Shown piece by piece: positions 23,386 to 45,874 of a stretch of 64,000 nucleotides of DNA (within the stretch, counting starts at the first letter, position 1; each line of letters opens with the position of its first letter). The DNA lies in NCBI GenBank assembly GCA_964485625.1, contig CAZAJM010000001.1:29803-93802 (forward strand), read 5' to 3'. Made by a program: the position numbers and the translations under genes. Source of the stretch: an uncultured Candidatus Saccharibacteria bacterium. GTDB taxonomy: Bacteria > Patescibacteriota > UBA1384 > JAGGWG01 > CAZAJM01. The notes under the pieces were generated by a model. That model was not told where the DNA came from. It saw only the letters and a program-made list of their open reading frames with translations, and made no database searches.

Positions 23386-25299
23386 CTAATAGTTCTTTTT
23401 GAGGAGCTTATCAAGTTCAATTTCTGCAACACCAATTACCTTATCTGCTCCTCCGTAATATATTAATACCTTATCGTCTTTAAGTATTTTGCCACAAGGG
23501 AATACAACATTATTTACAAACCCTTCTTTTTCCCAATTTTCCGTTGGCTCGAGTATGGGATATTTACTTCTGTAGATTACTTCCTCTGGTCTTTCTAGGT
23601 CTAAGAGTAAGGTTCCCACCCTATACTGACCATCTTTACTACTAACACCATGATAGAGTACTAGCCAGCCTTTTTTGGTTTTTAGTGGGGTAGTGTTGAT
23701 GCCAATCTTCTTATCATCCCACATGCCTGCTCTAGGACCAATCATACCTTCTTTCTCTAACCACTCATTATCTTCAAATATTAGGTCGTCTAAGTAGTCT
23801 ATAGCGACCTCTCTACCTCCCACCCGGTGGAAGAGCAAGTATCTACCATTAATTTTTTCCGGGAAGAGACAGGCATCTTTATCGTCTGTGTTAGGGGGAG
23901 AGACTATTTTTGGCTCTGACCAGTTCCAATTCTTGCTATAGAAATCTTTTGTTTTAATATAGCTCATCGCTACTCTGGGTGGATTGACTCCATCAAAGGC
24001 AGTGTAGAGGAGGTAATATCTATCTCCAATTTTAGTAATTCTGGGATCTTCACAGCCTGAGAAGCAGTTTGGTTTTTTCTTCTTCTCAAAATCGGCTCTT
24101 GGAGTGTAGATTGGCTGATCGTATCTTTTAAAATTGTAACCGTCATTGCTAGTTGCCAGGCCAATAGTTGAGGTGTTGTTCTTTGAGAATGCCCGATAGA
24201 GCATATAGGTGGTGCCTTCATGTTCAACTGCGGCTGGGTTAAAGACTGCTTCAGCCTCCCAGTCATTTGTCTCTAATGGTTTTAGGATTGGGTTATGTTG
24301 GTACTTTTTTACCTTGAGTGCTTTTTTGACCTGGTTGTTTTTCATCTCTCGGAGTAGCTTCTCCACCCTTATACTCGCCCTAGCACAGTGGGTATCGGCA
24401 GCGCCATAGTAGATATCTATTGAACTATTGTTCTTGATTGCTCCACTTGGGAAGACGACATTTTTAATTACCCCCTCTCTTTCGTAGGGTTCTTCTGGCA
24501 GTAGGAGAGGATTGTCTGTTCGGGAGATTATCTTTTTAGGATTATTTTTATCTAATAAGACCGCTTCTATGCCAAATATTCGATCGTCGTGGTAGTAGTT
24601 TTTAATATGAGAGTAGATTAGTAGCCAGCCTTGTTCTAGCTCAATTGGCCTGGCTCCAATCTCTGTTTGATCGCTATTTAATCTTTTTAGATTGAGGGTC
24701 TTTTTATCTAAATTTTGATACCACTTCTGCCAAAGATCTTGATCCCACATCTCCTCAATTGTTTCAAAGCTTCTTAAGGCAGTTTTTGACGGAGGTAAGT
24801 CTGTGTTGGCTGAGAGGATAGATAAATATTTGCCATTCACTTTTTCTGGGAATAGCGTCATCGCCTTGGCGTTGAAGGGAGTTACTAGATGTTTCTCCTC
24901 AACTGTTTTTAGGTCTTTTGAGATTGCTAGACCAACTTTGATGCTATCTGGCCTGGGTGGCCAGGCAGAGAGAGCGGTATAGAAAATATAGTATTTGCTA
25001 TCTATTTTAGTGACTCTAGGGTCTTCACAGCCAAATAGGTCCCAGTTGGTGCTGGGAGCAATTAGTTGCATTGGAGTACTAAATTTTTTGCCGTCTTTGC
25101 TTCTGGTTATGCCAATAGTGGAGAGAGATAATTTCTGACCCTGAACCTCTATCTCATTTGAAAGAGCTCTAAAAAGAAGAACTGTTTTGTCATCTTTTTC
25201 TATAGCGCTAGGATTAAAAGTAGCTTGGGCCTGCCAAGCATCTTCTGGGTTAGGTGAGATTAGCGGATTGTTTTTACTTTTTTTTGCTAGGTTTGTCAT
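23386..25299 (-). CDS. Tandem two-domain GH130-like glycoside phosphorylase (beta-mannoside-phosphorylase family 5-bladed beta-propeller)
   Basis: Two copies of the GH130 core (FNPSAIEKDDKTVLLFRA...GITRSKDG and FNPAAVEHEGTTYMLYRA...GLATSNDG, each followed by CEDPR). 637 aa. Confidence 0.75.
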   Translation of the reverse strand: MTNLAKKSKNNPLISPNPEDAWQAQATFNPSAIEKDDKTVLLFRALSNEIEVQGQKLSLSTIGITRSKDGKKFSTPMQLIAPSTNWDLFGCEDPRVTKIDSKYYIFYTALSAWPPRPDSIKVGLAISKDLKTVEEKHLVTPFNAKAMTLFPEKVNGKYLSILSANTDLPPSKTALRSFETIEEMWDQDLWQKWYQNLDKKTLNLKRLNSDQTEIGARPIELEQGWLLIYSHIKNYYHDDRIFGIEAVLLDKNNPKKIISRTDNPLLLPEEPYEREGVIKNVVFPSGAIKNNSSIDIYYGAADTHCARASIRVEKLLREMKNNQVKKALKVKKYQHNPILKPLETNDWEAEAVFNPAAVEHEGTTYMLYRAFSKNNTSTIGLATSNDGYNFKRYDQPIYTPRADFEKKKKPNCFSGCEDPRITKIGDRYYLLYTAFDGVNPPRVAMSYIKTKDFYSKNWNWSEPKIVSPPNTDDKDACLFPEKINGRYLLFHRVGGREVAIDYLDDLIFEDNEWLEKEGMIGPRAGMWDDKKIGINTTPLKTKKGWLVLYHGVSSKDGQYRVGTLLLDLERPEEVIYRSKYPILEPTENWEKEGFVNNVVFPCGKILKDDKVLIYYGGADKVIGVAEIELDKLLKKNY

Positions 25300-31724: not shown

Positions 31725-32168
31725 ATGAATAAAGAGAAATATGTCTCTAGAAAGACAGGAGGGCAGTTTCTAAAGTTTGCCACAGTTGGTGTCTCTAATA
31801 CTTTGGTTGATATTGGTGTTCTGAATTTGTTGATGTATCTAAGCGGGGTCTATCAGGGGACATCGATTATTGTATTTAACATTATCTCTGTCTCTCTAGC
31901 CATTATTAACAGCTATATCTGGAACAAGTACTGGACATTTGGCTCCAAAGAGAAAGATAATCAAGCTCAGGAGTTTGGCACTTTTGTGGCAGTTAGTTTA
32001 GGTGGTGCCTTAATCAATACTTTTGTTGTCTATAGCCTAACCACCTTTCTTGATCCGGCTTTTGGTCTGGGCAAGGAGCTCTGGGCCAATGCGGCTAAAG
32101 TCTTGGCAATCGGTTTGGCTTGGTTGTGGAACTTTAATGGCTATAAATTCTTTGTCTTTAAGAAATAG
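31725..32168 (+). CDS. GtrA family membrane protein (polyprenol-phosphate-sugar flippase-associated)
   Basis: FLKFATVGVSNTLVDIGVLNLLMY is the GtrA signature. 4 TM, 147 aa. Confidence 0.8.
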   Translation: MNKEKYVSRKTGGQFLKFATVGVSNTLVDIGVLNLLMYLSGVYQGTSIIVFNIISVSLAIINSYIWNKYWTFGSKEKDNQAQEFGTFVAVSLGGALINTFVVYSLTTFLDPAFGLGKELWANAAKVLAIGLAWLWNFNGYKFFVFKK

Positions 32169-32173
32169 GTTTT

Positions 32174-33751
32174 ATGGAAAAAAGGAGGCTATATAGTTTA
32201 ATTGCTTTAGCGTTGCTTGCTCTAACGGCAATCTATTATTTTATCTACATTAAATTTGTTCCCGGAGGTATTTTCCCTGATGCTGCTGCCAATGGCCTGG
32301 ATGCTAATCTGATCTTAGATGGCCAGCACCAACCATTCTTTCCACGGGGAAATGGCAGAGAGGCGCTTTTCTTCTACTTAATGGCGGGATCAATCGCTCT
32401 TTTTGGAGTTAACCATTGGTCTATACTTATTCCTGGGGTTTTGGTAGCAATTCTTACTATCTGGGGAGTGTATAAGCTGGCGAGCTTGGTCTTCAATCAA
32501 AAAGTTGGCTTAGTGGCAATGATAATGACCAGTGTCTCATACTGGCTCTTTATTATCTCCCGGAGTGGTTTTAGGGCAATACTGATGCCGATGTTTCTGG
32601 TCTTCTTTCTCTACTTTCTTTTTTTAGCTATAAAACAAGTTAGGTACCGTTGGCTTTGGGCCAGTCTGTCCGGACTAATGTTTGGCTTAGGCTTCTACTC
32701 TTACATTGCTTATAGGATGGTCTTGGCGTGGCCGGTCTTCTTTATATTCCTTCTAATAGTATCAAAAATAAGTGGGCGCAAAAAATACTCCCAGTACGCT
32801 AAGATAGGCTGGTATTTTATCTTGTTTAGTATATTGGCTCTGATTCCACTAGGAATATATTTTGCATATAACCCGGAGGCAGTGGTTGGTAGAGCAGGGC
32901 AGGTTTCAATTTTTAGTCCCGAGCTTAACCAAGGTGATCTTATTGGCACGTTGATTGAACAAGTAAAAGTAAATTTCTTCGCTTTTTGGAGTGAGGGCGA
33001 TCTTAACTGGCGGCACAATATCTCCGGCTGGTCTCTTTTTGATCCATTAACCGGAGTCTTCTTAATCGGTGGGCTGGTCTTCTTCTTTATTAAATCTATC
33101 CAATTTATTGGTAACTTGTTTAGCAGACTTAGTTTTAAAGGTATAGAGTACTTTATGATCTTAGTTACCTTCTTGCTCTTGCTAGTGCCGGCGATTATGT
33201 CTCCTGAAGGAGCACCCCATGCTCTGCGGCTAATAGGTTGTCTGCCATTTGCTACGATTATGGCCGGTTGGTTCTTGGTGGCTCTCTTCGAGCTCTTTAG
33301 TCGCTCTAAAAACCCAGGCTTTAATATCTTTAGCAAGATTTTAATTGCAGGTTCAGTAGCTTTTATTCTAATTTTTAACATTACTAGCTTCTGGACTGTG
33401 GCGGCTACAGATAGTGACTACTACCATGCCTTTAGAAAAGATTTAACCTATGCTAGTCAGTACTTAAACGAGCGTAGTGATCGAGATAATACTTATTTAG
33501 CTCTGGATGAGTACTCTCTTCAAACACCTGAGTTTCTAACTTCCATCAACAACCAACCATATATCCCAGCTGATTTAGATAAGCTTGATAGTCTCAGGCT
33601 GCTACCTGATCAGCAGATTGTTTTCACTCTATCAACTCTTGAGTTAGCAGAGCGCTTTGAGGAGTTTCATCCGAAAGTAGAGATTGTTAGGCAAGAGTTT
33701 AACCAATTAAGTGAGGAGGGGGAGGAACTAATTAGAGTTTATGAAAGATAG
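32174..33751 (+). CDS. GT-C fold glycosyltransferase, PMT/ArnT (GT39/GT83) family
   Basis: About 525 aa and polytopic. N-terminal loop with a DA...D/E motif region typical of the PMT_2 family. Directly downstream of gtrA. Confidence 0.7.
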   Translation: MEKRRLYSLIALALLALTAIYYFIYIKFVPGGIFPDAAANGLDANLILDGQHQPFFPRGNGREALFFYLMAGSIALFGVNHWSILIPGVLVAILTIWGVYKLASLVFNQKVGLVAMIMTSVSYWLFIISRSGFRAILMPMFLVFFLYFLFLAIKQVRYRWLWASLSGLMFGLGFYSYIAYRMVLAWPVFFIFLLIVSKISGRKKYSQYAKIGWYFILFSILALIPLGIYFAYNPEAVVGRAGQVSIFSPELNQGDLIGTLIEQVKVNFFAFWSEGDLNWRHNISGWSLFDPLTGVFLIGGLVFFFIKSIQFIGNLFSRLSFKGIEYFMILVTFLLLLVPAIMSPEGAPHALRLIGCLPFATIMAGWFLVALFELFSRSKNPGFNIFSKILIAGSVAFILIFNITSFWTVAATDSDYYHAFRKDLTYASQYLNERSDRDNTYLALDEYSLQTPEFLTSINNQPYIPADLDKLDSLRLLPDQQIVFTLSTLELAERFEEFHPKVEIVRQEFNQLSEEGEELIRVYER

Positions 33752-35267
33752 TGGTAGAAAAAACTGGCTTTATCTTACACCTGTAATTATTCTTTCAGTT
33801 ATCTTGCGCTACTGGAACTTGAGCGCTATTGCCCTCTGGCATGATGAGGCCTTCTCTGTACTAATGCCTGAGTACCCAGTTAGTGAGATGCTGGCTCGCT
33901 TGGCCTTAGATGTTCACCCACCTCTTTATTACTTGCTCTACTATGGCTGGAAAGAGATCTTTGGCAACACTGTCTTTGATTTAAGAATGTTCTCAGTCTT
34001 TTTCGGTATTCTTGGTTTAATAGGAATATATTTGCTTGTCAGAAAGACTTTTGAGGATAACAAACTAGCTCTATGGGCAATTTTTCTCTCGGCCGTTAAT
34101 CCATTTCTAATACTTTACGCTCAAGAAGGAAGAATGTATGCCCTGGGGCTCTTTTTAGCTATCTTTGCTAATTACTTTCTAATTAAAGCGATCAGAAGAA
34201 AGCAGATTAGTGATTGGTTCTTCTTTATTGTCTTTGCTAGCGCTGCTACCTACACCCACTACTATCTGCTTTTCTCGGTCTTTGCCATGATGCTCTTTAT
34301 CGCCTACAAAGCAGTAGCAGACAGAGAGCAGAGGAGTTACTTTATTCGCTCTTTTTTAACTAGCGGTGCCTTTCTGGTGCTGCTATATCTACCCTGGCTA
34401 AGGCAGTTCTTTGACCAACTCAGCCAAGTCCAAGAAAACTACTGGATTCCCGAGATGACTCTCTGGTCTGTACCTAATACCTTGATTAACCTACTGACCG
34501 GAGGAGTGGTCTCGATAGGGGAGAGCAATTGGTGGCTAGGGGTGATCTTTATCGGTTTAATTCTCTTCCTCTTTATTAGGGGGCTGGGCTATCTAAAGAA
34601 AAGATCGACTGAGGGCATGGTCTTAATTATTCTTAATTTTCTAACCCCTTTTATTCTGGCGATACTACTCTCTTTTAAACAATCTCTTTATCTAGATCGC
34701 TACTTTATCTTTATTGTTCCTTTCTATCTCATTGTTCTTACCGCCGGTATCTACTCTCTTAAACCCAAAAATCTTAGAAGAGCAATTATGCTTATCTTTG
34801 CCGCCGTTATGGCCTTCTCATATATTAACTACTGGCAGACAAGTAATATTAATCAAAAGCCCGGCATGAGAGGTGCTTCTACATACCTAAATAATAGTTA
34901 TGGGGAAGATGATAAAATATTAGTAACTTCCAGCTTTGTTTACTTTACCTTCAAGCACTACAATCAGACAGGTCAGGAACCAATTCTCTATGCCCCAGGA
35001 GAGCTCTCTCATTTCTCCGGTACTGCTCTGCTAGATGAGGATGATATTGCCAAAAACTTTGAAAAGTTTGGAGAAGAGGGCGATACTATCTGGCTTATCT
35101 CAACCAGTGGTTTTGGTAACTTTAGACCGGAGTTGCCTAGTGACTGGCATAAGCTGAGTGAGCAGGAGTACCCAGACTCCAATAGCGTGAAAGGAAGTAT
35201 CTTTATTGAAAAGTATCAAATATTTAGTGAAGACCTAACGGGTATGATAAAATATATGGGAGAGTAA
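33741..35267 (+). CDS. GT-C fold glycosyltransferase, PMT/ArnT (GT39/GT83) family, paralogue
   Basis: YLTPVIILSVILRYWNLSAIALWHDEAF... PMT_2-like N-terminus. 508 aa. Start overlaps the previous gene. Confidence 0.7.
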   Translation: MKDSGRKNWLYLTPVIILSVILRYWNLSAIALWHDEAFSVLMPEYPVSEMLARLALDVHPPLYYLLYYGWKEIFGNTVFDLRMFSVFFGILGLIGIYLLVRKTFEDNKLALWAIFLSAVNPFLILYAQEGRMYALGLFLAIFANYFLIKAIRRKQISDWFFFIVFASAATYTHYYLLFSVFAMMLFIAYKAVADREQRSYFIRSFLTSGAFLVLLYLPWLRQFFDQLSQVQENYWIPEMTLWSVPNTLINLLTGGVVSIGESNWWLGVIFIGLILFLFIRGLGYLKKRSTEGMVLIILNFLTPFILAILLSFKQSLYLDRYFIFIVPFYLIVLTAGIYSLKPKNLRRAIMLIFAAVMAFSYINYWQTSNINQKPGMRGASTYLNNSYGEDDKILVTSSFVYFTFKHYNQTGQEPILYAPGELSHFSGTALLDEDDIAKNFEKFGEEGDTIWLISTSGFGNFRPELPSDWHKLSEQEYPDSNSVKGSIFIEKYQIFSEDLTGMIKYMGE

Positions 35268-35283
35268 TATTAAAGGAGGTAAA

Positions 35284-35907
35284 ATGGATATTAAAAAAGT
35301 TAATGTAAAAAACATGAACGAAACAAAAACGTCAACTAAGATTTTAATGGTAGCTCTAGTGTTAATTCTAGCTACAGGCATGCTCCTGGCCGGCTACTAC
35401 TATGGCAGGAGCAGTGTGGTCTGTAAGCATGATTCAAACAGGTGCTATCAGCAAGAGCAGACAAGCACTACTGATGAGGTAGTAGAGGATGAAGAGACAG
35501 GGGAAGAAGTAGATAATGAGGTAGCTTCAGTTTCTGTTAGAGATGTTGATTTCGAAGAGGTTTTTATTGAGGAAATTGAGCCAACAAGCGATAGTTATGA
35601 AACTATTGGAGAGATAGAATACGCTGACCTAACAGGTGATGGAGAAGAAGAGGCTATATTTTTGGCTATGACCGGTGGTAGCGGCGCAGGAATGGGAGTA
35701 TTTGTTTATGGCTATCAAAACGGTGACCTAAAACAGCTTCACAAAGAGAGTGGTTATTCTAGTTACCAGTTTGAGATAAGAAATCAGAATAGGCTTAAGA
35801 TCACAGCAGTTAATATGGGTTCCAGCCAAAACAGAAATAAAGCCCATGCTGAGATGGCTAGAGATGTAGATAAAACGTATAGCTACCAAAACGGAGAGTT
35901 TGAATAG
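35284..35907 (+). CDS. Hypothetical membrane-anchored protein
   Basis: N-terminal TM, an acidic linker, and a C-terminal globular region. No motif. Confidence 0.45.
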   Translation: MDIKKVNVKNMNETKTSTKILMVALVLILATGMLLAGYYYGRSSVVCKHDSNRCYQQEQTSTTDEVVEDEETGEEVDNEVASVSVRDVDFEEVFIEEIEPTSDSYETIGEIEYADLTGDGEEEAIFLAMTGGSGAGMGVFVYGYQNGDLKQLHKESGYSSYQFEIRNQNRLKITAVNMGSSQNRNKAHAEMARDVDKTYSYQNGEFE

Positions 35908-35912
35908 ATTTA

Positions 35913-36545
35913 ATGACTAAAGACTCCAAGACAAATTGGCTGGTATTTGCCATAATAATTGCTTTAGGGCTGTTGGTTTATGGCGGATATTTGTTGACCA
36001 AATCTGCTAGTAATCATTCGTACGATGACTCTACAGTTGAGCCTTCCGATCTTCTGAAAGATTCAGAAAGTGACAACGACTGCCAGTCTTGCCAAGAGCA
36101 AGAAGTGGATGCTAGTGAGCAAGAGGCAAGAGATGTGCTTGACCAGTTTCAAAGCTATCAGACTGATAGGCAGGCAAGTAGGGTTCTTTCTATGATGACT
36201 GAACCAGAGACTGTTAATGAGGAGAATGATTTAGCTACAATTGTTCTGGGTATTGAAGATGGAGAAGAGATCTATCGACTCTACTCTGCCAATGAGCTAA
36301 CTTTTAACCTCCTTAGCTATGAGGTAACTAGTAGCGAAAAGATAGATGATGAAGAGTACTGGCTCTATGTTAGCGAAACCAGAGAGCTTTGGGACAGGAC
36401 AACAGGGGATTGGAGCGATGAGCAAAGTCAGGTTGAAAGAAAATTTGAGATAATAAAAATAGATGATCATTGGAAAGTTAGAAAATATACTACTGTTGAG
36501 GGCAATGGTAAATATGATGGATTTAGTAATGTAAATAATATTTAA
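35913..36545 (+). CDS. Hypothetical membrane-anchored protein
   Basis: N-terminal TM, an acidic linker, and a C-terminal domain. No motif. Confidence 0.45.
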   Translation: MTKDSKTNWLVFAIIIALGLLVYGGYLLTKSASNHSYDDSTVEPSDLLKDSESDNDCQSCQEQEVDASEQEARDVLDQFQSYQTDRQASRVLSMMTEPETVNEENDLATIVLGIEDGEEIYRLYSANELTFNLLSYEVTSSEKIDDEEYWLYVSETRELWDRTTGDWSDEQSQVERKFEIIKIDDHWKVRKYTTVEGNGKYDGFSNVNNI

Positions 36546-36555
36546 TGCAATTATT

Positions 36556-37272
36556 ATGCCTAAATTAAGCGTTGTTATCCCGGCTTACAATGAATCTAAA
36601 AGAATTACTCCAACTCTGGAGGCCACTAGAAAATATTTAGAGGGTCAAGACTATGATTATGAAGTTTTAATTGTTAATGATGGTTCTACTGATAATACTG
36701 CTCAGGTGGTAAATGGGGTTATAGAGAATTGGTCTGAGTTTAAGCTAATAGATAACAGGAAGAATAAAGGCAAGGGTGGTGTGGTTAAGCAAGGCATGCT
36801 AGAGGCCAAGGGAGATTGGCGACTGTTTATGGATGCCGATAACTCAACTCCAGTCAGTGAGGTGGAGAAGTTTTGGCCATATACTAATCGCTATGAGATC
36901 ATTATTGGTTCTCGTTACTCCCATGGCGGAGAGGTAACAGAGGCTCAGCCATTAAGTCGGCGAGTGATGTCTCGGTTGGGTAATTTTCTTATTCAAGTGA
37001 TGGTGGCTTGGGGGATGAAAGATACACAGTGTGGCTTTAAGATGTTCTCGGCCAAAGCAACTGAAGAGATCTTTCCTTATCAGACTATGCAGATGTGGTC
37101 TTTTGATATTGAGCTAATTGCTATTGCCAAACGTCATAAGTACAAGATAGCTCAGGAAGGTATTGTCTGGCGTAATGAAGGAGATAGCAAGGTAGGTTCG
37201 GACGCTGCTATGAGAACTTTTAAGAACTTGTTTCGTATTAAGTGGAATCTTATCACTGGTAAGTATAGCTAA
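36556..37272 (+). CDS. Polyprenol-phosphate glycosyltransferase (DPM1/GtrB-like GT2)
   Basis: LSVVIPAYNESKRI...VNDGSTDNT and a DAD motif (FMDADNS). 238 aa, soluble. Classic dolichyl/undecaprenyl-phosphate mannose/glucose synthase architecture. Confidence 0.85.
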   Translation: MPKLSVVIPAYNESKRITPTLEATRKYLEGQDYDYEVLIVNDGSTDNTAQVVNGVIENWSEFKLIDNRKNKGKGGVVKQGMLEAKGDWRLFMDADNSTPVSEVEKFWPYTNRYEIIIGSRYSHGGEVTEAQPLSRRVMSRLGNFLIQVMVAWGMKDTQCGFKMFSAKATEEIFPYQTMQMWSFDIELIAIAKRHKYKIAQEGIVWRNEGDSKVGSDAAMRTFKNLFRIKWNLITGKYS

Positions 37273-41595: not shown

Positions 41596-41706
41596 ACTGA
41601 TAATAATATTACTAAGAAAAGGTTAGTTTGTAAATATCTTCTGTTAGAGGTAAAATTAATTTAAGCAGTACCCAGACAAAATATGAAGAACAAGGAGTGG
41701 GATCCG

Positions 41707-41847
41707 ATGAGCTCTATGCCGGAGACAAAACCAAATGAATATATTCCCCAAATATATACCAAGTGTCCAAATCCTCATTGTGATTATGTTAACAGCTCCA
41801 ATAGGGATCGTTGTCCAAGGTGCAAGAGAGACCTTAAGAGGATATGA
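41707..41847 (+). CDS. Zinc-ribbon micro-protein (46 aa); not in the supplied ORF track
   Basis: AAGGAG RBS 11 nt upstream. MSSMPETKPNEYIPQIYTKCPNPHCDYVNSSNRDRCPRCKRDLKRI with CxxxC...CxxC. Its TGA overlaps the next ATG (ATATGA). Confidence 0.45.
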   Translation: MSSMPETKPNEYIPQIYTKCPNPHCDYVNSSNRDRCPRCKRDLKRI

Positions 41848-42017
41848 GCAGACTTTGCAGTAACTGTGGCTCATATATCACAAATGTCTTAGATAAATAC
41901 TGCTATGGTTGTGGTGCTGAAATAGCAAGCAGGGCAAGCACTAGGAATTGCCCAAGTTGTGGTAATAGCAACTATGTTAGTGACAGCTACTGTAGGGGAT
42001 GTGGTAGGAAGCTTTGA
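41844..42017 (+). CDS. Double zinc-ribbon micro-protein (57 aa); not in the supplied ORF track
   Basis: MSRLCSNCGSYITNVLDKYCYGCGAEIASRASTRNCPSCGNSNYVSDSYCRGCGRKL has four CxxC pairs in the DZR pattern. Confidence 0.5.
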   Translation: MSRLCSNCGSYITNVLDKYCYGCGAEIASRASTRNCPSCGNSNYVSDSYCRGCGRKL

Positions 42018-42082: not shown

Positions 42083-42208
42083 ATGAACGGCAGCGAGAAG
42101 ATCAGATGCAGGGTTTGTGGGGGACAGATCAATCAGGGGGAGTGCAGTGTTTGCGGGGGATACAATAATAGCAAGCCAGAGCCTCATCCGGATCAGAATT
42201 ACAAGTAG
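42083..42208 (+). CDS. Zinc-ribbon micro-protein (41 aa); not in the supplied ORF track
   Basis: MNGSEKIRCRVCGGQINQGECSVCGGYNNSKPEPHPDQNYK with CxxC...CxxC. Confidence 0.4.
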   Translation: MNGSEKIRCRVCGGQINQGECSVCGGYNNSKPEPHPDQNYK

Positions 42209-42317: not shown

Positions 42318-42623
42318 TTACTCGTTCTTTTTTATAAACTGTTTTAGAGAATCTAGAGCCTGGGCGCCGACCAGCCTATCTACCTCTTTGCCTTTATCAT
42401 AAATAATGAAGGTTGGCACGCCCATAATATTTTCTTGCTCAGAGATGTTGGGGTTTCGGTTAATATTTAGCTTGTAAACTTCAATATCAACCTCTTTTTT
42501 CAATTGTTCTACCACCGGCTCCATCTGCTTGCAAGGTATGCACCATGAACCCCAAAAATCTACTAGAATTTTTTTCTTTGATTCCAGAACCTTCTCTTGG
42601 AAAGTTTTTGAGTTTAATTCCAT
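42318..42623 (-). CDS. Thioredoxin
   Basis: WGSWCIPCKQM active site (WCxPC). 101 aa. Start/stop abuts the SQD1-like gene. Confidence 0.85.
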   Translation of the reverse strand: MELNSKTFQEKVLESKKKILVDFWGSWCIPCKQMEPVVEQLKKEVDIEVYKLNINRNPNISEQENIMGVPTFIIYDKGKEVDRLVGAQALDSLKQFIKKNE

Positions 42624-44161
42624 TACTTGTCAATTAATTTACCCTGGTAGCCTTTCTTCTTTTTCTTTTTATCGGTTTTAACAATCTCTAAAACTTCTGA
42701 ATCTTTCTTCTCTCCCGACCATCTAGTTTTAGGCATTATGGTATGTTTTTTCTCTTTCATTCTGCTAACAATTTCGGGTTTGGTTAGTAGTTTGAAGGTC
42801 TCAGTTATCTCTTCTTCTAGGCCAATCGTTGGTTTAAAGCCAAATCTGTTAGGTAGATTACGAGAGACCACCTCTAAGGGATGGTTCTCGGCTTCTACTC
42901 GAGGGTTTTCTAATCTCTGAATTTTTACATTCTTTTTGAACTTTTTGCCAACCTTAGCGATTGTTTGAGCTAGATCGTTAATTTTGTAGAGGCCTGATAC
43001 CTGATTTACGACATCATACTGGCCCGGTTCAGGAGGTGAGAAGATTAATCTGGCCATACAGTCCATGGCGTCTCTTAAGGCAATAAAGCCTCTTATCTGT
43101 TCGCCACCACCATATACCGTTAAAGGCAGGCCAAGGATGGCTTGAGCAACGAAACGATTAATAACTGTGCCGAACCATTCGTCAATATCGAATCTTGTTC
43201 TTAAGTTTTTATCTTTAGCAACCTCATCGGTGTGGACTCCGTAGATCACTCCCTGCATAACATCATAACTTCTAAGCCACCAATACTTACAGGCCTCATA
43301 AACATTGAAGGTGTCCTGAACTTTTGAGCAATGGTAGAAGCTAACCGGATCTCTGGGAGTTATCTCTCCTCCTAAACTCCACTCTCGGTCATCCCACTTT
43401 AAGGTAGCATCAGAAGGGAACGTACCCTCAAAAAGCGGTCGACCAGTCAGGGGCCCACCGTACTCCCCCATGGTTCCAAGCTTAACCAACGAGCTTTCGG
43501 GCACGATGTCTTTCATCGCCCAGAGCAAGCCCAAGGTGCCTAAGGTGTTGTTGTTTTGGGTCTCTATAGCATGCTCGGCATCGACCATTGAATAAGGAGC
43601 AGAAGGGATTTCTGCATAATGAACAACTGCCTCAGGCTTAACCTCTTCCATAAATTCTCTTAAGTTGTCACCATCCCTAATATCCATCTTACGGAAGTTG
43701 ATATTAATCCCTAATTTTTTTTGAGCGGTATGGAGCCTTTCGGTCATTCTGGCAATAGGAACGATAGTATGGGCGCCTTTTTCCATAACGCAGTCTCGGC
43801 GGGTATAGTTATCGATACCCGATACTTGGCAGCCTAGCTTACCTAGCTTAAGAGCTAGAGTCCAGCCTAAATAACCGTCAACCCCCAAGATCATCACCTT
43901 CATATTTTTAAGCTGATAGCCGTAAGGGCCTTTCTGCCATTGAGGACATTGTTTAAAAGTAATGGTTGGTTCAAAGTGACCTAAATCAGGTCTTCTTCGA
44001 CATTCAATCATAACCTGTTGATCTTTTTGATCTTTGATTTTCTCTCTTGACTGGCCACAGGCAGTAAAGTCTACGTTGCCGATAATTTTTGCTGCCGGGC
44101 AGTTCCAGCAAGTCTTGTTAGCATTTTTTGCCACTGTACTTTTCTTTTTTCTTTTTGCCAT
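42623..44161 (-). CDS. UDP-sulfoquinovose synthase (SQD1/Agl3)-like SDR with a Cys-rich, Lys-rich N-terminal extension
   Basis: SQD1-specific block SFYHCSKVQDTFNVYEACKYWWLRSYDVMQGVIYGV (cf. plant SQD1 [36 protein letters not shown]) and NPRVEAENH (SQD1 NPRVEAEEH). GxxGxxG Rossmann ILGVDGYLG. N-terminal ~85 aa carry CWNC...C...C...C. K-rich C-terminal tail. Confidence 0.8.
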   Translation of the reverse strand: MAKRKKKSTVAKNANKTCWNCPAAKIIGNVDFTACGQSREKIKDQKDQQVMIECRRRPDLGHFEPTITFKQCPQWQKGPYGYQLKNMKVMILGVDGYLGWTLALKLGKLGCQVSGIDNYTRRDCVMEKGAHTIVPIARMTERLHTAQKKLGININFRKMDIRDGDNLREFMEEVKPEAVVHYAEIPSAPYSMVDAEHAIETQNNNTLGTLGLLWAMKDIVPESSLVKLGTMGEYGGPLTGRPLFEGTFPSDATLKWDDREWSLGGEITPRDPVSFYHCSKVQDTFNVYEACKYWWLRSYDVMQGVIYGVHTDEVAKDKNLRTRFDIDEWFGTVINRFVAQAILGLPLTVYGGGEQIRGFIALRDAMDCMARLIFSPPEPGQYDVVNQVSGLYKINDLAQTIAKVGKKFKKNVKIQRLENPRVEAENHPLEVVSRNLPNRFGFKPTIGLEEEITETFKLLTKPEIVSRMKEKKHTIMPKTRWSGEKKDSEVLEIVKTDKKKKKKGYQGKLIDK

Positions 44162-44172
44162 AAGATGATTTA

Positions 44173-45456
44173 TTAGATTCTATTTATTATTGAAACTATA
44201 TCTTCTACTTGGGGCTTGTCGATTACTTTAATTTTTTTTGATCTGACCAACAGAAAAGCCTGGCTGTTATGTACTCCTGTAAGAAAAGGTCTGGAATATT
44301 TTTGATTGTCTAGTTTGGCTAGGAGATTGAAACCTCGGTTTGGGACCAAGATTAAATCAGGGGCAGATCCTACTTGATCACCTCTATAGATCTCTTCCTT
44401 TCTATATATCTTCTTAATTACCTTCCTGTCCTTGACCTCTATTTTATCAAATAATTGTTCTAATTTATTGATAATTGTCAACCTCTGGTCCCCATTTTTA
44501 ACCTGGCCGGAGGGGTAGTTATCAGCATAATGAAGATATATTCTGCCATGCTCTAGGGCAAAAGCTTGTGAGTTAGCTTTGATGTCAGTTAGGCTAGAGC
44601 CTGAACCGATATCTAGAAAACCGGTTTCTATTAAGTACTGGTTTAGATTAACATCATAGTCGGCATTTTCCATACCGTGATCGGACAAGATTAAAAGAGG
44701 AGTGTTGGCAGAACTTCGTTCAACAATTTTTTTAATAGTTTGATCAACTAGTTTGAAATACTTAAGAAAACTTTGATGGTAGTCACTCTGTTTGCCTTCC
44801 CAATCATGCCAACGGTGATGGCCAAGTCGATCGCTGCCTGTGATAACGTACATTAGAATTTGAGGAGATAGCTTATCCAGATAGTTAAAAAGAGTTTCTT
44901 CTCGCTTAAGATGTACCTTTTCTAGTTGATTATATAGCAGGTAGGGTGATTGCCTTACTTTCTCTGAATCTAAGTCAACTTGGTAGTCAATCTTTTTTAG
45001 ATAACTAAGTTCACTACTTGGATAGACTGCTTTTTTCAAAGTGGGTGAGACAAAACCTGAAATATGAATACCATTTATTTTTTGAGCCGGATAGGTGGCA
45101 GGGACGTTGATAATTAGATATTTTTTGTCTTTTCTTTCTTGCCAAAAAGGTTTGGCTTTTAAAGATAGAAAATTAGGAAAGGAGGTAGTGTAGGTACCCG
45201 GGATTATACCCGTAAAACCAAAGATTCCGTGTTCTCCGGGATTCTTGCCGGTAATGATTGAGCTCCAGGAGACAGAAGAGATAAAAGGAATGGAAGAGTC
45301 CATTTTTGAAAAAAGCGACTCTTTCTTAAGCTTAGAGAAAAATGGCATCACTCCCTGATCAGAGAGCCTGTCAATTAAGCTATATGGAACACCATCGATG
45401 CCAATAATGATCTTTTCCAGATTATCCATACGAACATTATATCTTCTTAGAAACAA
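44173..45456 (-). CDS. Alkaline-phosphatase-superfamily type I phosphodiesterase/nucleotide pyrophosphatase-like protein
   Basis: IIGIDGVPYSLI metal-site motif near the N-terminus and a later His-rich region (GHHRWHDW). 427 aa. The true start may be an internal Met (MDNLEKII). Confidence 0.7.
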   Translation of the reverse strand: MFLRRYNVRMDNLEKIIIGIDGVPYSLIDRLSDQGVMPFFSKLKKESLFSKMDSSIPFISSVSWSSIITGKNPGEHGIFGFTGIIPGTYTTSFPNFLSLKAKPFWQERKDKKYLIINVPATYPAQKINGIHISGFVSPTLKKAVYPSSELSYLKKIDYQVDLDSEKVRQSPYLLYNQLEKVHLKREETLFNYLDKLSPQILMYVITGSDRLGHHRWHDWEGKQSDYHQSFLKYFKLVDQTIKKIVERSSANTPLLILSDHGMENADYDVNLNQYLIETGFLDIGSGSSLTDIKANSQAFALEHGRIYLHYADNYPSGQVKNGDQRLTIINKLEQLFDKIEVKDRKVIKKIYRKEEIYRGDQVGSAPDLILVPNRGFNLLAKLDNQKYSRPFLTGVHNSQAFLLVRSKKIKVIDKPQVEDIVSIINRI

Positions 45457-45562: not shown

Positions 45563-45874
45563 ATGTCTAAACCAAAAGTAGGGTTTAATAAAGAGAACAT
45601 CGACAAATGTATCTGCCCAGATTGTCCGGTTCAGGGAGAGTGTATGGAAGAGGCAAGGGCTAAGCTAAAAGTGAAGAAAGAAAAGGGTGTCAAACCGGAA
45701 CCAAAAGATTTAAAGCCAATTGGTATGTACTGCGCTCAGGCGGTAGGAACAACGAGTTGTGACGATTTGGATGAAGACAAAGGTTGTATCTGCCCCAGCT
45801 GTCCGCTCTGGAGTGAGAACGACTTACAAGAAACTTACTACTGTTTTAAAGAAGAGGCCGATAGAACTAAATAG
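45563..45874 (+). CDS. Small Cys-rich protein with duplicated CICPxCP motif (DUF2769-like)
   Basis: CICPDCPVQGEC and CICPSCPLWSEN are repeated. 103 aa. Confidence 0.45.
   Translation: MSKPKVGFNKENIDKCICPDCPVQGECMEEARAKLKVKKEKGVKPEPKDLKPIGMYCAQAVGTTSCDDLDEDKGCICPSCPLWSENDLQETYYCFKEEADRTK

Follow-up and report, generated by a model that had tools for sequence, protein, structure and literature searches.

A conserved cassette of a phosphodiesterase, an SQD1/Agl3-family synthase and a thioredoxin, probably for a sulfo-sugar nucleotide, and its ties to sulfate activation

A three-gene operon from an uncultured Candidatus Saccharibacteria bacterium probably encodes, as far as its sequence can tell, the synthesis of a UDP-6-sulfoquinovose-type sugar nucleotide destined for a surface glycoconjugate. 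It lies in a 64-kb stretch of contig CAZAJM010000001.1 (the whole stretch of 64,000 nucleotides is referred to below as the window), and its three abutting minus-strand genes encode, in this order, a metallo-phosphodiesterase of the alkaline phosphatase (AlkP) superfamily (PDE), a synthase of the SQD1/Agl3 family of short-chain dehydrogenases/reductases (SDRs) with an added N-terminal module of five cysteines (Cys5), and a thioredoxin (Table 1). The explanation that we favour, with a probability of about one half, is that of a sulfo-sugar nucleotide cassette in which sulfur at the sulfite level is drawn from adenylyl sulfate (APS) by the PDE, Cys5 and thioredoxin together.

The three open reading frames (ORFs) were found as an earlier sequence-only reading of this DNA had described them, with the PDE upstream and the thioredoxin abutting downstream. 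The gap between PDE and SDR measures 11 nt, and the SDR stop shares one base with the thioredoxin start. The database gene call for the PDE (P0121, 418 aa) begins at M10 (45429), and this is the probable real start.

Table 1. Features of the cassette and of related or neighbouring genes; positions refer to the window unless a locus is named.
Feature	Position	Strand	Description or basis
PDE, AlkP-superfamily NPP/PhnA-like metallo-phosphodiesterase, COG3379 type	44173-45456	-	427 aa from TTG; Pfam PF01663, E 1.7e-37
Cys5-SQD1-like synthase, whole gene	42623-44161	-	512 aa; NF041015 full length, SQD1 PDB sequences, Foldseek
Cys5 module, synthase residues 13-84	43910-44125	-	five invariant Cys
SQD1/Agl3-like extended-SDR core, residues 87-465	42767-43903	-	SQD1 alignments
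Catalytic Y276-H277-x2-K280	43322-43336	-	SQD1 alignments
Family-specific insertion in active-site region, P237-P272 (...LTGRPLFEG...W..REWSLGGE.TPRDP)	43346-43453	-	family alignment
Family-specific C-terminal extension, residues 466-512	42626-42766	-	family alignment; poly-Lys end in window protein
Thioredoxin	42318-42623	-	101 aa; PF00085, TIGR01068; active site W27-C28-I-P-C31 at 42531-42542
GtrA-like gene, two PMT_2 GT-C genes, two unassigned ORFs, GT2 gene (36556-37272)	31725-37272	+	PF04138, PF13231 (twice), PF00535
Zinc-ribbon-like ORF	41683-41847	+	54 aa; CPNPHC..CPRC
Zinc-ribbon-like ORF	41844-42017	+	57 aa; CSNC..CYGC..CPSC..CRGC
Zinc-ribbon-like ORF	42083-42208	+	41 aa; CRVC..CSVC
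Minimal AlkP-like protein	L006:12124-12912		
Minimal AlkP-like protein	L007:8274-9032	-	
Minimal AlkP-like protein	L008:10054-10827		

The synthase, its family and its two partners

Enzymes of the SQD1 family oxidise UDP-glucose at C4 in an NAD+-dependent step, remove water across C5 and C6, add a sulfite-level nucleophile at C6 and re-reduce the product. The assignment of the 512-aa protein to this SQD1/Agl3 family is well supported by sequence comparison, with matches far beyond chance. The NCBIfam model for UDP-sulfoquinovose synthase, NF041015, aligned with it over model positions 1-383 of 384 (E 5e-126, 420.8 bits; 421.7 bits for the core alone), the next SDR family scoring 41 bits; the closest PDB sequences were those of Arabidopsis SQD1 (E 2e-79, next entry 2e-6), and SQD1 was likewise the top Foldseek match (1qrr, E 3e-34), the next fold being GalE at 8e-17. 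A neighbour-joining tree containing SQD1, SqdB and haloarchaeal and actinobacterial homologues placed the window synthase within the canonical spread and far from GalE-like outgroups. Its identity to SQD1 is 41% over 358 aligned residues, as against 44.5% between SQD1 and SqdB of Sinorhizobium meliloti. Profile, sequence, fold and tree all agree with the earlier placement next to SQD1, SqdB and Agl3 and not among the GalE-type epimerases, and no loss of the active site was seen.

The curated equivalog cut-off of NF041015 (575 bits) is not reached by the window synthase. This cut-off is narrow: the genetically defined SqdB of S. meliloti scores 332 bits, and with 60% identity to SQD1 a Pseudonocardia homologue reaches 458 bits. 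Because the S. meliloti enzyme scores below the window synthase, the shortfall is uninformative, and it was dropped as an argument against membership after this calibration.

The NAD-binding GxxGxxG is kept as G93-V-D-G96-Y-L-G99, aligned with GGDGYCG of SQD1 (PF01370 and PF16363 also match), and the three SQD1 blocks singled out in the earlier reading, SFYHCSKVQD, CKYWWLRSYDVMQGVIYGV and NPRVEAENH, are all present. The signature of UDP-sulfoquinovose synthases is likewise retained in the alignment to SQD1, as T230-M231-G232-E233-Y234 and Y276-H277-C-S-K280, with M231 replaced by L or F in a few members of the Cys5-synthase family. Of 60 positions that vary neither among four canonical homologues nor within this family, 56 proved identical. 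The AlphaFold2 (AF2) model of the synthase has a pLDDT of 79 and is poor at residues 233-301, round the active site. A [ST]MG..Yx3K signature sets UDP-sulfoquinovose synthases apart from other nucleotide-sugar SDRs, the signature residues of SQD1 being T145, Y182, H183 and K186; in Agl3 the Glu-Tyr pair E147/Y148 was probed by mutation (PMC8987622, PMC4388408). The window enzyme likely makes UDP-sulfoquinovose or a very close analogue of it.

A scan that took one genome per species found the Cys5-synthase family in 161 species-level genomes of bacteria and archaea; the neighbourhood counts given below come from 80 loci retrieved among these carriers. Members are about 500 aa long and 64-90% identical across phyla (64-79% for the synthases of the 80 loci). 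The best 120 database matches listed are almost all of 500-560 aa and 69-90% identical, with 94-100% query coverage that includes the extension, and a mis-called start is thereby ruled out as the origin of the N-terminal extension. Named members among the matches listed belong to Patescibacteria, Diapherotrites, Woesearchaeota, Thermoplasmatota and Asgard archaea. Bacterial hosts in the 80 loci are Armatimonadota, Saccharibacteria, Chloroflexota, Omnitrophota and Planctomycetota, and the archaeal ones are Thermoplasmata, Bathyarchaeia, several Asgard groups, and Woese-, Aenigm-, Iain- and Altiarchaeales. The enzyme, described earlier as unexpected in an organism with features of the Candidate Phyla Radiation (CPR), is no oddity of a single CPR genome and belongs to a large, very conserved subfamily that spans CPR, DPANN, Asgard, Thermoplasmatota, Chloroflexota and other lineages. 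The hosts are non-phototrophic, mostly uncultured anaerobes, and going by record titles they come mostly from sulfidic sediments. Viral carriage was considered and set aside, with just one weak locus in IMG/VR.

Two parts of the synthase beyond Cys5 are specific to the family. The insertion in the active-site region is about 10 residues longer than in SQD1/SqdB, has invariant W256, R259, W261, S262, G264, G265 and E266, and lies in a low-confidence region of the AF2 model. The C-terminal extension, which SQD1 lacks, has conserved positions R467, K471, H473, P477, T479, W481, G483, K485, E492, Y494, P496 and G497, and the family-wide tail follows the pattern ...H.IMPKT.W.GEK..(x)LE.Y.PG.K...GY. 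The window protein ends in ...KTDKKKKKKGYQGKLIDK; the poly-Lys tail reported earlier is indeed there, confined to this protein and its close relatives. Four family members of 838-855 aa (P0024, P0057, P0071 and P0098) carry an insert, in two of them with a LAGLIDADG-type intein domain (PF14528). The insert of P0024 splits the catalytic YxxxK motif (SFYH | C...intein... | SKVQD), at a point matching window position 43328-43330. At this insertion position the window synthase has C278, where the family consensus is Val.

Among the loci with enough flank (77 for thioredoxin and 74 for the PDE), thioredoxin stands directly downstream of the synthase in every one (77/77), and the PDE stands directly upstream in 65; in 5 loci it has another place in the flank, and 4 lack it. 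The intergenic spacing is a few bases. At the canonical sqdB-type loci examined (S. meliloti, Natrinema and Pseudonocardia), neither a thioredoxin nor a PDE partner was present. PDE and thioredoxin, named as operon partners from the window alone, are conserved operon members in two domains of life.

Recurrent neighbours of the cassette include a short type 2 glycosyltransferase (GT2) directly after the thioredoxin, a GalE-like SDR, Wzx-type flippases, GT4 glycosyltransferases and a TrmB-type regulator, and GT2 neighbours of the polyprenyl-phosphate type are frequent. The GT-C/GT2 glycosylation genes pointed out earlier in the window (two GT-C and a GT2, here with a GtrA-like gene) lie 5 kb from the cassette. 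Such a set fits the loading of a sugar on polyprenyl phosphate, its flipping and its transfer outside the membrane, and by association its members are possible downstream users of the sugar nucleotide. The product of the synthase would probably pass to a GT2 of the polyprenyl-phosphate type, a flippase and GT-C enzymes.

Cys5, the thioredoxin and the phosphodiesterase

Synthase residues 1-86 lie before the SQD1-like core and its Rossmann fold. The CWNC and three further cysteines described for this extension were confirmed as C18-W-N-C21, C35, C54 and C72, set in the pattern N-x4-C18-W-N-C21-P-A-A...D-F-x2-C35-G-Q...I-E-C54-x-R-R-x2-L-G-x2-E-P-x-I-T-F-x2-C72-P-x-W (family consensus TCWNCPAA...DF..CGQ...IEC.RR..LG..EP.ITF..CP.W). 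All five are invariant in 116 fused homologues and are also kept in 9 stand-alone homologues of about 30-50% identity. The module had no Pfam and no PDB matches, and a word-index homologue search with the 86-aa domain returned 6 fragments only. A profile search of 1.84 billion cluster representatives returned only 46 proteins, namely fragments of the family and stand-alone proteins of 68-87 aa, and found Cys5 in no other protein architecture. A 1083-aa repeat protein (P0260) repeatedly matched the Cys5 profile at positions 52-78. As judged by these patterns, the extension is a genuine, previously undescribed domain that also occurs autonomously.

The AF2 model shows short beta-strands in Cys5, with high pLDDT for residues 11-30 and 51-90 and low pLDDT for 31-50, the loop with C35 included. 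A zinc ribbon consists of two CxxC (or CxxH) knuckles on beta-hairpins that bind one zinc. Cys5 has one CxxC (C18/C21) and three singletons 14, 19 and 18 residues apart, and because of this single CxxC it does not readily suggest a classical zinc ribbon. A reasonable guess would be that four of the cysteines ligate a metal and the fifth is free and mobile.

The thioredoxin is a regular member of its family (PF00085, E 2e-27; TIGR01068, 101.7 bits against a cut-off of 96.8) with the active site WCIPC. Cassette thioredoxins carry WC[PVLIT][PA]C, and the usual WCGPC was seen in none of the parsed sequences.

In the PDE, the two-metal site (three Asp and three His) and the Ser/Thr nucleophile are all kept. 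The model has a pLDDT of 95.5, and its closest folds are phosphonoacetate hydrolase (PhnA) and the nucleotide pyrophosphatases/phosphodiesterases (NPPs). In NPP and PhnA, the Asn that follows HGIxG contacts the transferred group; when HGIFGF of the PDE is aligned with HGICGN of PhnA, this Asn is missing and the invariant F81 stands in its place. The metal ligands, S60, TGxNPxxHG and Phe81 are invariant in every genomic context, whether cassette, Cys5 pair or cysN-linked (the latter two are described below), and the activity is for this reason probably the same everywhere. The PDE is cytoplasmic and shows no evident signal peptide. Cysteine is missing altogether from the window PDE, and no cysteine position is conserved in the PDE family; the only conserved cysteines of the cassette are those of Cys5.

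Sulfate activation and the supply of sulfur

In 17 of 74 loci, an ATP sulfurylase gene (cysDN or sat) stands no more than 8 kb away, in most cases 0.4-3.6 kb distant and with its strand shared; by our rough estimate, chance would place a gene of 1-2 copies per genome there in about 1-2% of loci. The recurrent sets near the cassette are a ribbon-helix-helix (RHH) protein with CysD and CysN, and Sat with a DHH protein and APS kinase, sometimes joined by a sulfotransferase-like protein. In nine cysDN loci, several of them from small DPANN/CPR genomes, no APS kinase is nearby. A hidden Markov model derived from CysD found no CysH-like protein in the loci, which cover +/-8 kb only, and the only PF01507 proteins there are CysD. 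The thioredoxin had been connected with a separate reductase of the CysH type; with no CysH-like gene found within +/-8 kb beside the cassette or the adjacent ATP-sulfurylase genes, it does not appear to serve one, and it is linked to the Cys5-bearing synthase itself.

Stand-alone Cys5 genes occur directly downstream of a PDE of the same family, often with a 4-bp overlap and with no SDR nearby (L082-L089, L101-L103, L105-L118). In L102 the PDE-Cys5 pair is followed by the same RHH protein that elsewhere precedes cysD or sat. A split variant (L090) has a 400-aa synthase with the IPSAP motif and the C-terminal extension but without Cys5, a stand-alone Cys5 gene lying 6 kb off. A metagenome scan seeded with the PDE of the stand-alone type gave 80 further loci, in about 30 of which the PDE directly follows cysN; about 28 are full cassettes and about 9 are PDE-Cys5 pairs. 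The cysN-linked order is CysD-[TauE/TSUP]-CysN-PDE, with TauE in some loci. L155 has the order CysN-PDE-Cys5..., and in L184 Trx<-Cys5-SDR is divergent from CysD-TauE-CysN-PDE. The cysN-linked PDEs are 40-42% identical to the window PDE and nest within the diversity of cassette PDEs.

The neighbourhoods of the stand-alone PDE-Cys5 pairs gave no clear functional signal. Four pairs (L108, L110, L116 and L119) are convergent with a ThrC-like pyridoxal-phosphate enzyme and a GHMP kinase, followed in L116 by aspartokinase and aspartate-semialdehyde dehydrogenase; cysteate synthase, a user of sulfite, is a paralogue of ThrC. A PGA_cap protein, an amidohydrolase and a Fer4 protein were also seen as neighbours of such pairs. 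One stand-alone Cys5 homologue (L094:548-790) sits beside a UbiA prenyltransferase with neither PDE nor synthase, in a context that looks mobile or viral (MCM helicase, dUTPase, PD-(D/E)xK nuclease), and another copy (L099) follows a NosD/beta-helix protein.

Further AlkP-type proteins surround the sulfate-activation operons. Minimal AlkP-like proteins of 252-262 aa (PF01663, E 1e-12; Table 1), with the metal-ligand motifs kept, lie in or beside cysDN operons adjoining the cassette, and represent a second, shorter AlkP-type protein tied to sulfate activation. Large PF01663 paralogues of 680-720 aa and sulfatase-like proteins were seen round CysD-TauE-CysN-PDE operons (L148:2620-6813 (-), L160, L170, L181), and exopolysaccharide-type genes (exosortase, Wzz, Wzx) follow cysN-PDE in L180 and L150. 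These contexts hint at sulfated polymers made with no APS kinase in view.

A second type of link is provided by a short tail at the C-terminus, in which an acidic stretch leads into [KR]L[KR]xLGY[LMI], sometimes with a further D, and which ends all CysD proteins examined. The same tail is found on the small RHH proteins that precede cysD or sat (CysD and RHH genes of L006-L055), on five cassette thioredoxins (L011, L026, L034, L048 and L161) and on two Cys5-synthases (L071 and P0115), as well as on an APS kinase (CysC, L070:16310-16843), a PDE paralogue (L163:5950-7575) and one sulfatase-like protein. Its distribution suggests a docking peptide for a common partner, possibly CysN. It also supports, independently of gene order, that the cassette is physically linked to sulfate activation.

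Taken with the conservation of the cassette, these ties lead us to suggest, tentatively, that the PDE, Cys5 and thioredoxin serve sulfur delivery. The synthase would then not depend on free sulfite, and the three extra parts would form a joint delivery device. In this scheme the PDE would bind or handle APS, the product of ATP sulfurylase; the sulfo group would be held as S-sulfocysteine on Cys5, most likely at C35 on its flexible loop, while the remaining four cysteines may hold a metal; and thioredoxin would give two electrons and release sulfite in the active site of the synthase, beside its 4-keto-5,6-ene intermediate. Two electrons are required because the sulfur of APS is at the sulfate level and SQD1 chemistry needs the sulfite level. 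They are ascribed to thioredoxin because it is the sole universally linked redox protein, and its most plausible target is Cys5, since the PDE family lacks any conserved cysteine and the window PDE is entirely free of cysteine. Taken to its end, the scheme makes of the three parts a CysH-independent, thioredoxin-dependent APS reductase (a "sulfite relay") tied to ATP sulfurylase via the LGY tail, in which the sulfo group of APS would be handed by a metalloenzyme of the AlkP fold to a cysteine on a carrier of 70 residues, docked on or fused to the synthase. This full version we regard as possible and rather unlikely.

Several points weigh against a delivery of sulfur from APS. The PDE site is of the Ser/Thr-nucleophile, two-metal type, and AlkP/NPP enzymes with such a site normally attack phosphorus; simply splitting APS with water into AMP and sulfate would gain nothing, and we know of no precedent for sulfuryl transfer to a module such as Cys5. 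The AF2 model of the synthase, poor as it is at 233-301, gives no docking position for Cys5. No ATP-sulfurylase gene lies within the 64-kb window, and the sat-type loci include APS kinase, the DHH protein and a sulfotransferase-like gene, so that O-sulfation could be an alternative reason for their co-location. About 30 cysDN-PDE loci have neither Cys5 nor thioredoxin within 10 kb, and the PDE therefore has a role independent of Cys5. Finally, canonical SQD1 and Agl3 use free sulfite and need no helper (PMC4388408).

Some of these points favour a somewhat unlikely alternative, an ordinary UDP-sulfoquinovose synthase with accessory parts that uses free sulfite, supplied by the sulfidic surroundings or by a reductase whose gene lies elsewhere. 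Cys5 would then bind zinc or Fe-S in a structural role or act as a thiol redox switch, with the thioredoxin only keeping it reduced or regulating it. The PDE would be a helper hydrolase, one that for example clears pyrophosphate or nucleotide by-products and so pulls the unfavourable ATP-sulfurylase reaction forward, or that removes side products such as UDP-glucose-5,6-ene. NPP-type enzymes are hydrolases, four of the five cysteines could just bind metal, the loci in which the PDE follows cysN and both Cys5 and thioredoxin are missing would suit a general aid to sulfate activation, and the window, as said, has no ATP sulfurylase nearby. The catalytic core, moreover, is nearly unchanged with respect to the enzymes that use free sulfite (PMC4388408). 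What this alternative leaves unexplained is a dedicated thioredoxin of non-canonical type at every testable locus, the translational coupling of stand-alone Cys5 to the PDE where no synthase is present, the cassette-adjacent cysDN operons that lack both cysC and cysH, those of small DPANN/CPR genomes included, and the CysD-type LGY tail on some of the thioredoxins and synthases.

One residue also speaks against the favoured reading. The equivalent of R101 in Agl3 is Pro186, near-invariant in the family (HYAEIPSAPYS, as compared with HFGEQRSAPYS in SQD1), and Agl3 R101A is inactive (PMC8987622, PMC4388408). The haloarchaeal Natrinema homologue likewise has Pro at this position, by which the substitution is weakened as a mark of lost or altered activity. 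The same Pro can be cited, together with the conserved insertion beside the active site, for a different sulfur nucleophile: a Cys5 persulfide, sulfide or thiosulfate-derived sulfur could add to the 4-keto-5,6-ene, giving a UDP-6-thio-6-deoxy-hexose or related thio-sugar, with thioredoxin resolving the disulfide formed after persulfide addition. An invariant cysteine module with a thioredoxin would fit persulfide chemistry, and the hosts, by their record titles mostly anaerobes of sulfidic sediments, also count for a thio-sugar. We nevertheless consider a thio-sugar improbable: the recurrent operon link is to ATP sulfurylase, the active site keeps the SQD1 signature and almost every conserved position, no such thio-sugar is known from the host lineages, and no cysteine desulfurase or rhodanese was recognised among the recurrent neighbour clusters, most of the smaller of which are unannotated.

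The place of the PDE directly after cysN, where cysC usually stands, in about 30 loci without cysC raises a further alternative, in which the PDE is the key novelty and converts APS to 3'-phosphoadenylyl sulfate (PAPS) by a pyrophosphate- or phosphoenzyme-dependent 3'-phosphorylation, replacing CysC, while Cys5 and thioredoxin act on PAPS. Sulfatase-like and sulfotransferase-like neighbours would suit it. This, too, is improbable, as no AlkP-type nucleotide 3'-kinase is known, a normal CysC stands beside the cassette in sat-type loci, and a catalyst for the reduction of PAPS would still be needed.

Other neighbours, significance and comparison with known systems

The 720-bp "gap" between the thioredoxin and ABC-transporter genes of the window contains three small zinc-ribbon-like ORFs that are convergent with the cassette (Table 1). 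A Cys-rich DUF2769 protein (PF10967, E 3.5e-10) is encoded at 45563-45874 (+), divergent from the PDE, and is retained in the near-identical contig L081; tblastn gave no matches to it in 80 related loci, and it is probably no cassette member. The downstream ABC transporter was rejected as a member, being present in 3 loci only. The protein encoded at 23386-25299 (-) is 637 aa long and ends in a GH130 (beta-1,4-mannooligosaccharide phosphorylase) domain, preceded by an additional N-terminal half.

The core enzyme itself belongs to a known family. A literature search returned no paper on the cassette, on the function of COG3379 or on a sulfoquinovose synthase in CPR, DPANN or Asgard, and as far as we could find, four features had not been described before: Cys5 as a domain, a thioredoxin as an obligatory partner, a PDE of the COG3379 type as another partner, and the link of this PDE with cysDN. 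The original structural work on SQD1 reportedly left the sulfur donor open, the plant enzyme requires a complex with a partner, and the supply of sulfite, toxic and scarce, to SQD1-type enzymes is an old open point; the cassette offers a defined three-protein system that may channel the sulfur of APS. If the relay were true, APS would be reduced in a novel way, the COG3379 AlkP-like family and Cys5 would gain a first function, and many non-phototrophic anaerobes would make sulfoquinovose glycoconjugates directly from sulfate with no free sulfite. Sulfoquinovose is regarded as a sulfur compound made by phototrophs, found besides in a few archaeal N-glycans (PMC13436972). The cassette would add to these a set of unrecognised producers, in at least 161 species-level genomes from dark anoxic lineages that include genome-reduced CPR/DPANN symbionts and Asgard archaea, and it points to a common anionic surface sugar in the host lineages. 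Its extreme conservation makes the synthase gene a convenient marker, and the cassette could serve the enzymatic synthesis of UDP-sulfoquinovose.

Among known systems, the closest are SQD1 of Arabidopsis, SqdB of cyanobacteria, Sinorhizobium and Rhodobacter, and Agl3 of Sulfolobus acidocaldarius, with which the cassette synthase shares the extended-SDR fold, GxxGxxG, T-M-G...Y-H-x2-K and the E-Y pair; like the sqdBDC and agl clusters, the cassette has glycosyltransferase genes nearby. Unlike these enzymes, it has the Cys5 domain, the insertion of about 10 residues (within 237-272) and a C-terminal extension of about 45 residues, and, unlike the canonical loci examined, an obligatory thioredoxin and PDE. 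It further differs in the Pro at the position of Arg101 of Agl3, in its non-phototrophic, mostly uncultured anaerobic hosts from both domains, in its exceptional conservation (64-90% identity across phyla) and in the intein that some members carry in YxxxK.

In the PDE, the six metal ligands and the Ser/Thr nucleophile followed by TGxxPxxHG are those of NPPs (ENPP4/6/7 and the Xanthomonas NPP) and of PhnA. It is only 13-17% identical to them, however, is cytoplasmic, has Phe81 for the Asn of PhnA, and has cysN, Cys5 and an SQD1-like enzyme as partners.

With the CysH-type APS/PAPS reductases (PF01507) there is a likeness in proposed mechanism only, namely the coupling to ATP sulfurylase, the need for thioredoxin and a cysteine on a flexible segment. 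In CysH it is established that S-sulfocysteine is carried and that sulfite is then released by thioredoxin. No PF01507 or PP-loop domain was found by Pfam or NCBIfam in the PDE, the synthase or the thioredoxin. Unlike CysH, the nucleotide partner would here be a metalloenzyme of the AlkP/NPP fold, the 70-aa cysteine module is unrelated, and the sulfite would be used in place by the fused enzyme.

In plants, a complex of SQD1 with ferredoxin-glutamate synthase improves the handling of the sulfur donor. That complex is a case of a UDP-sulfoquinovose synthase working with a redox protein (PMC4388408), although its partners are unrelated to those of the cassette and are joined to it by neither operon nor fusion.

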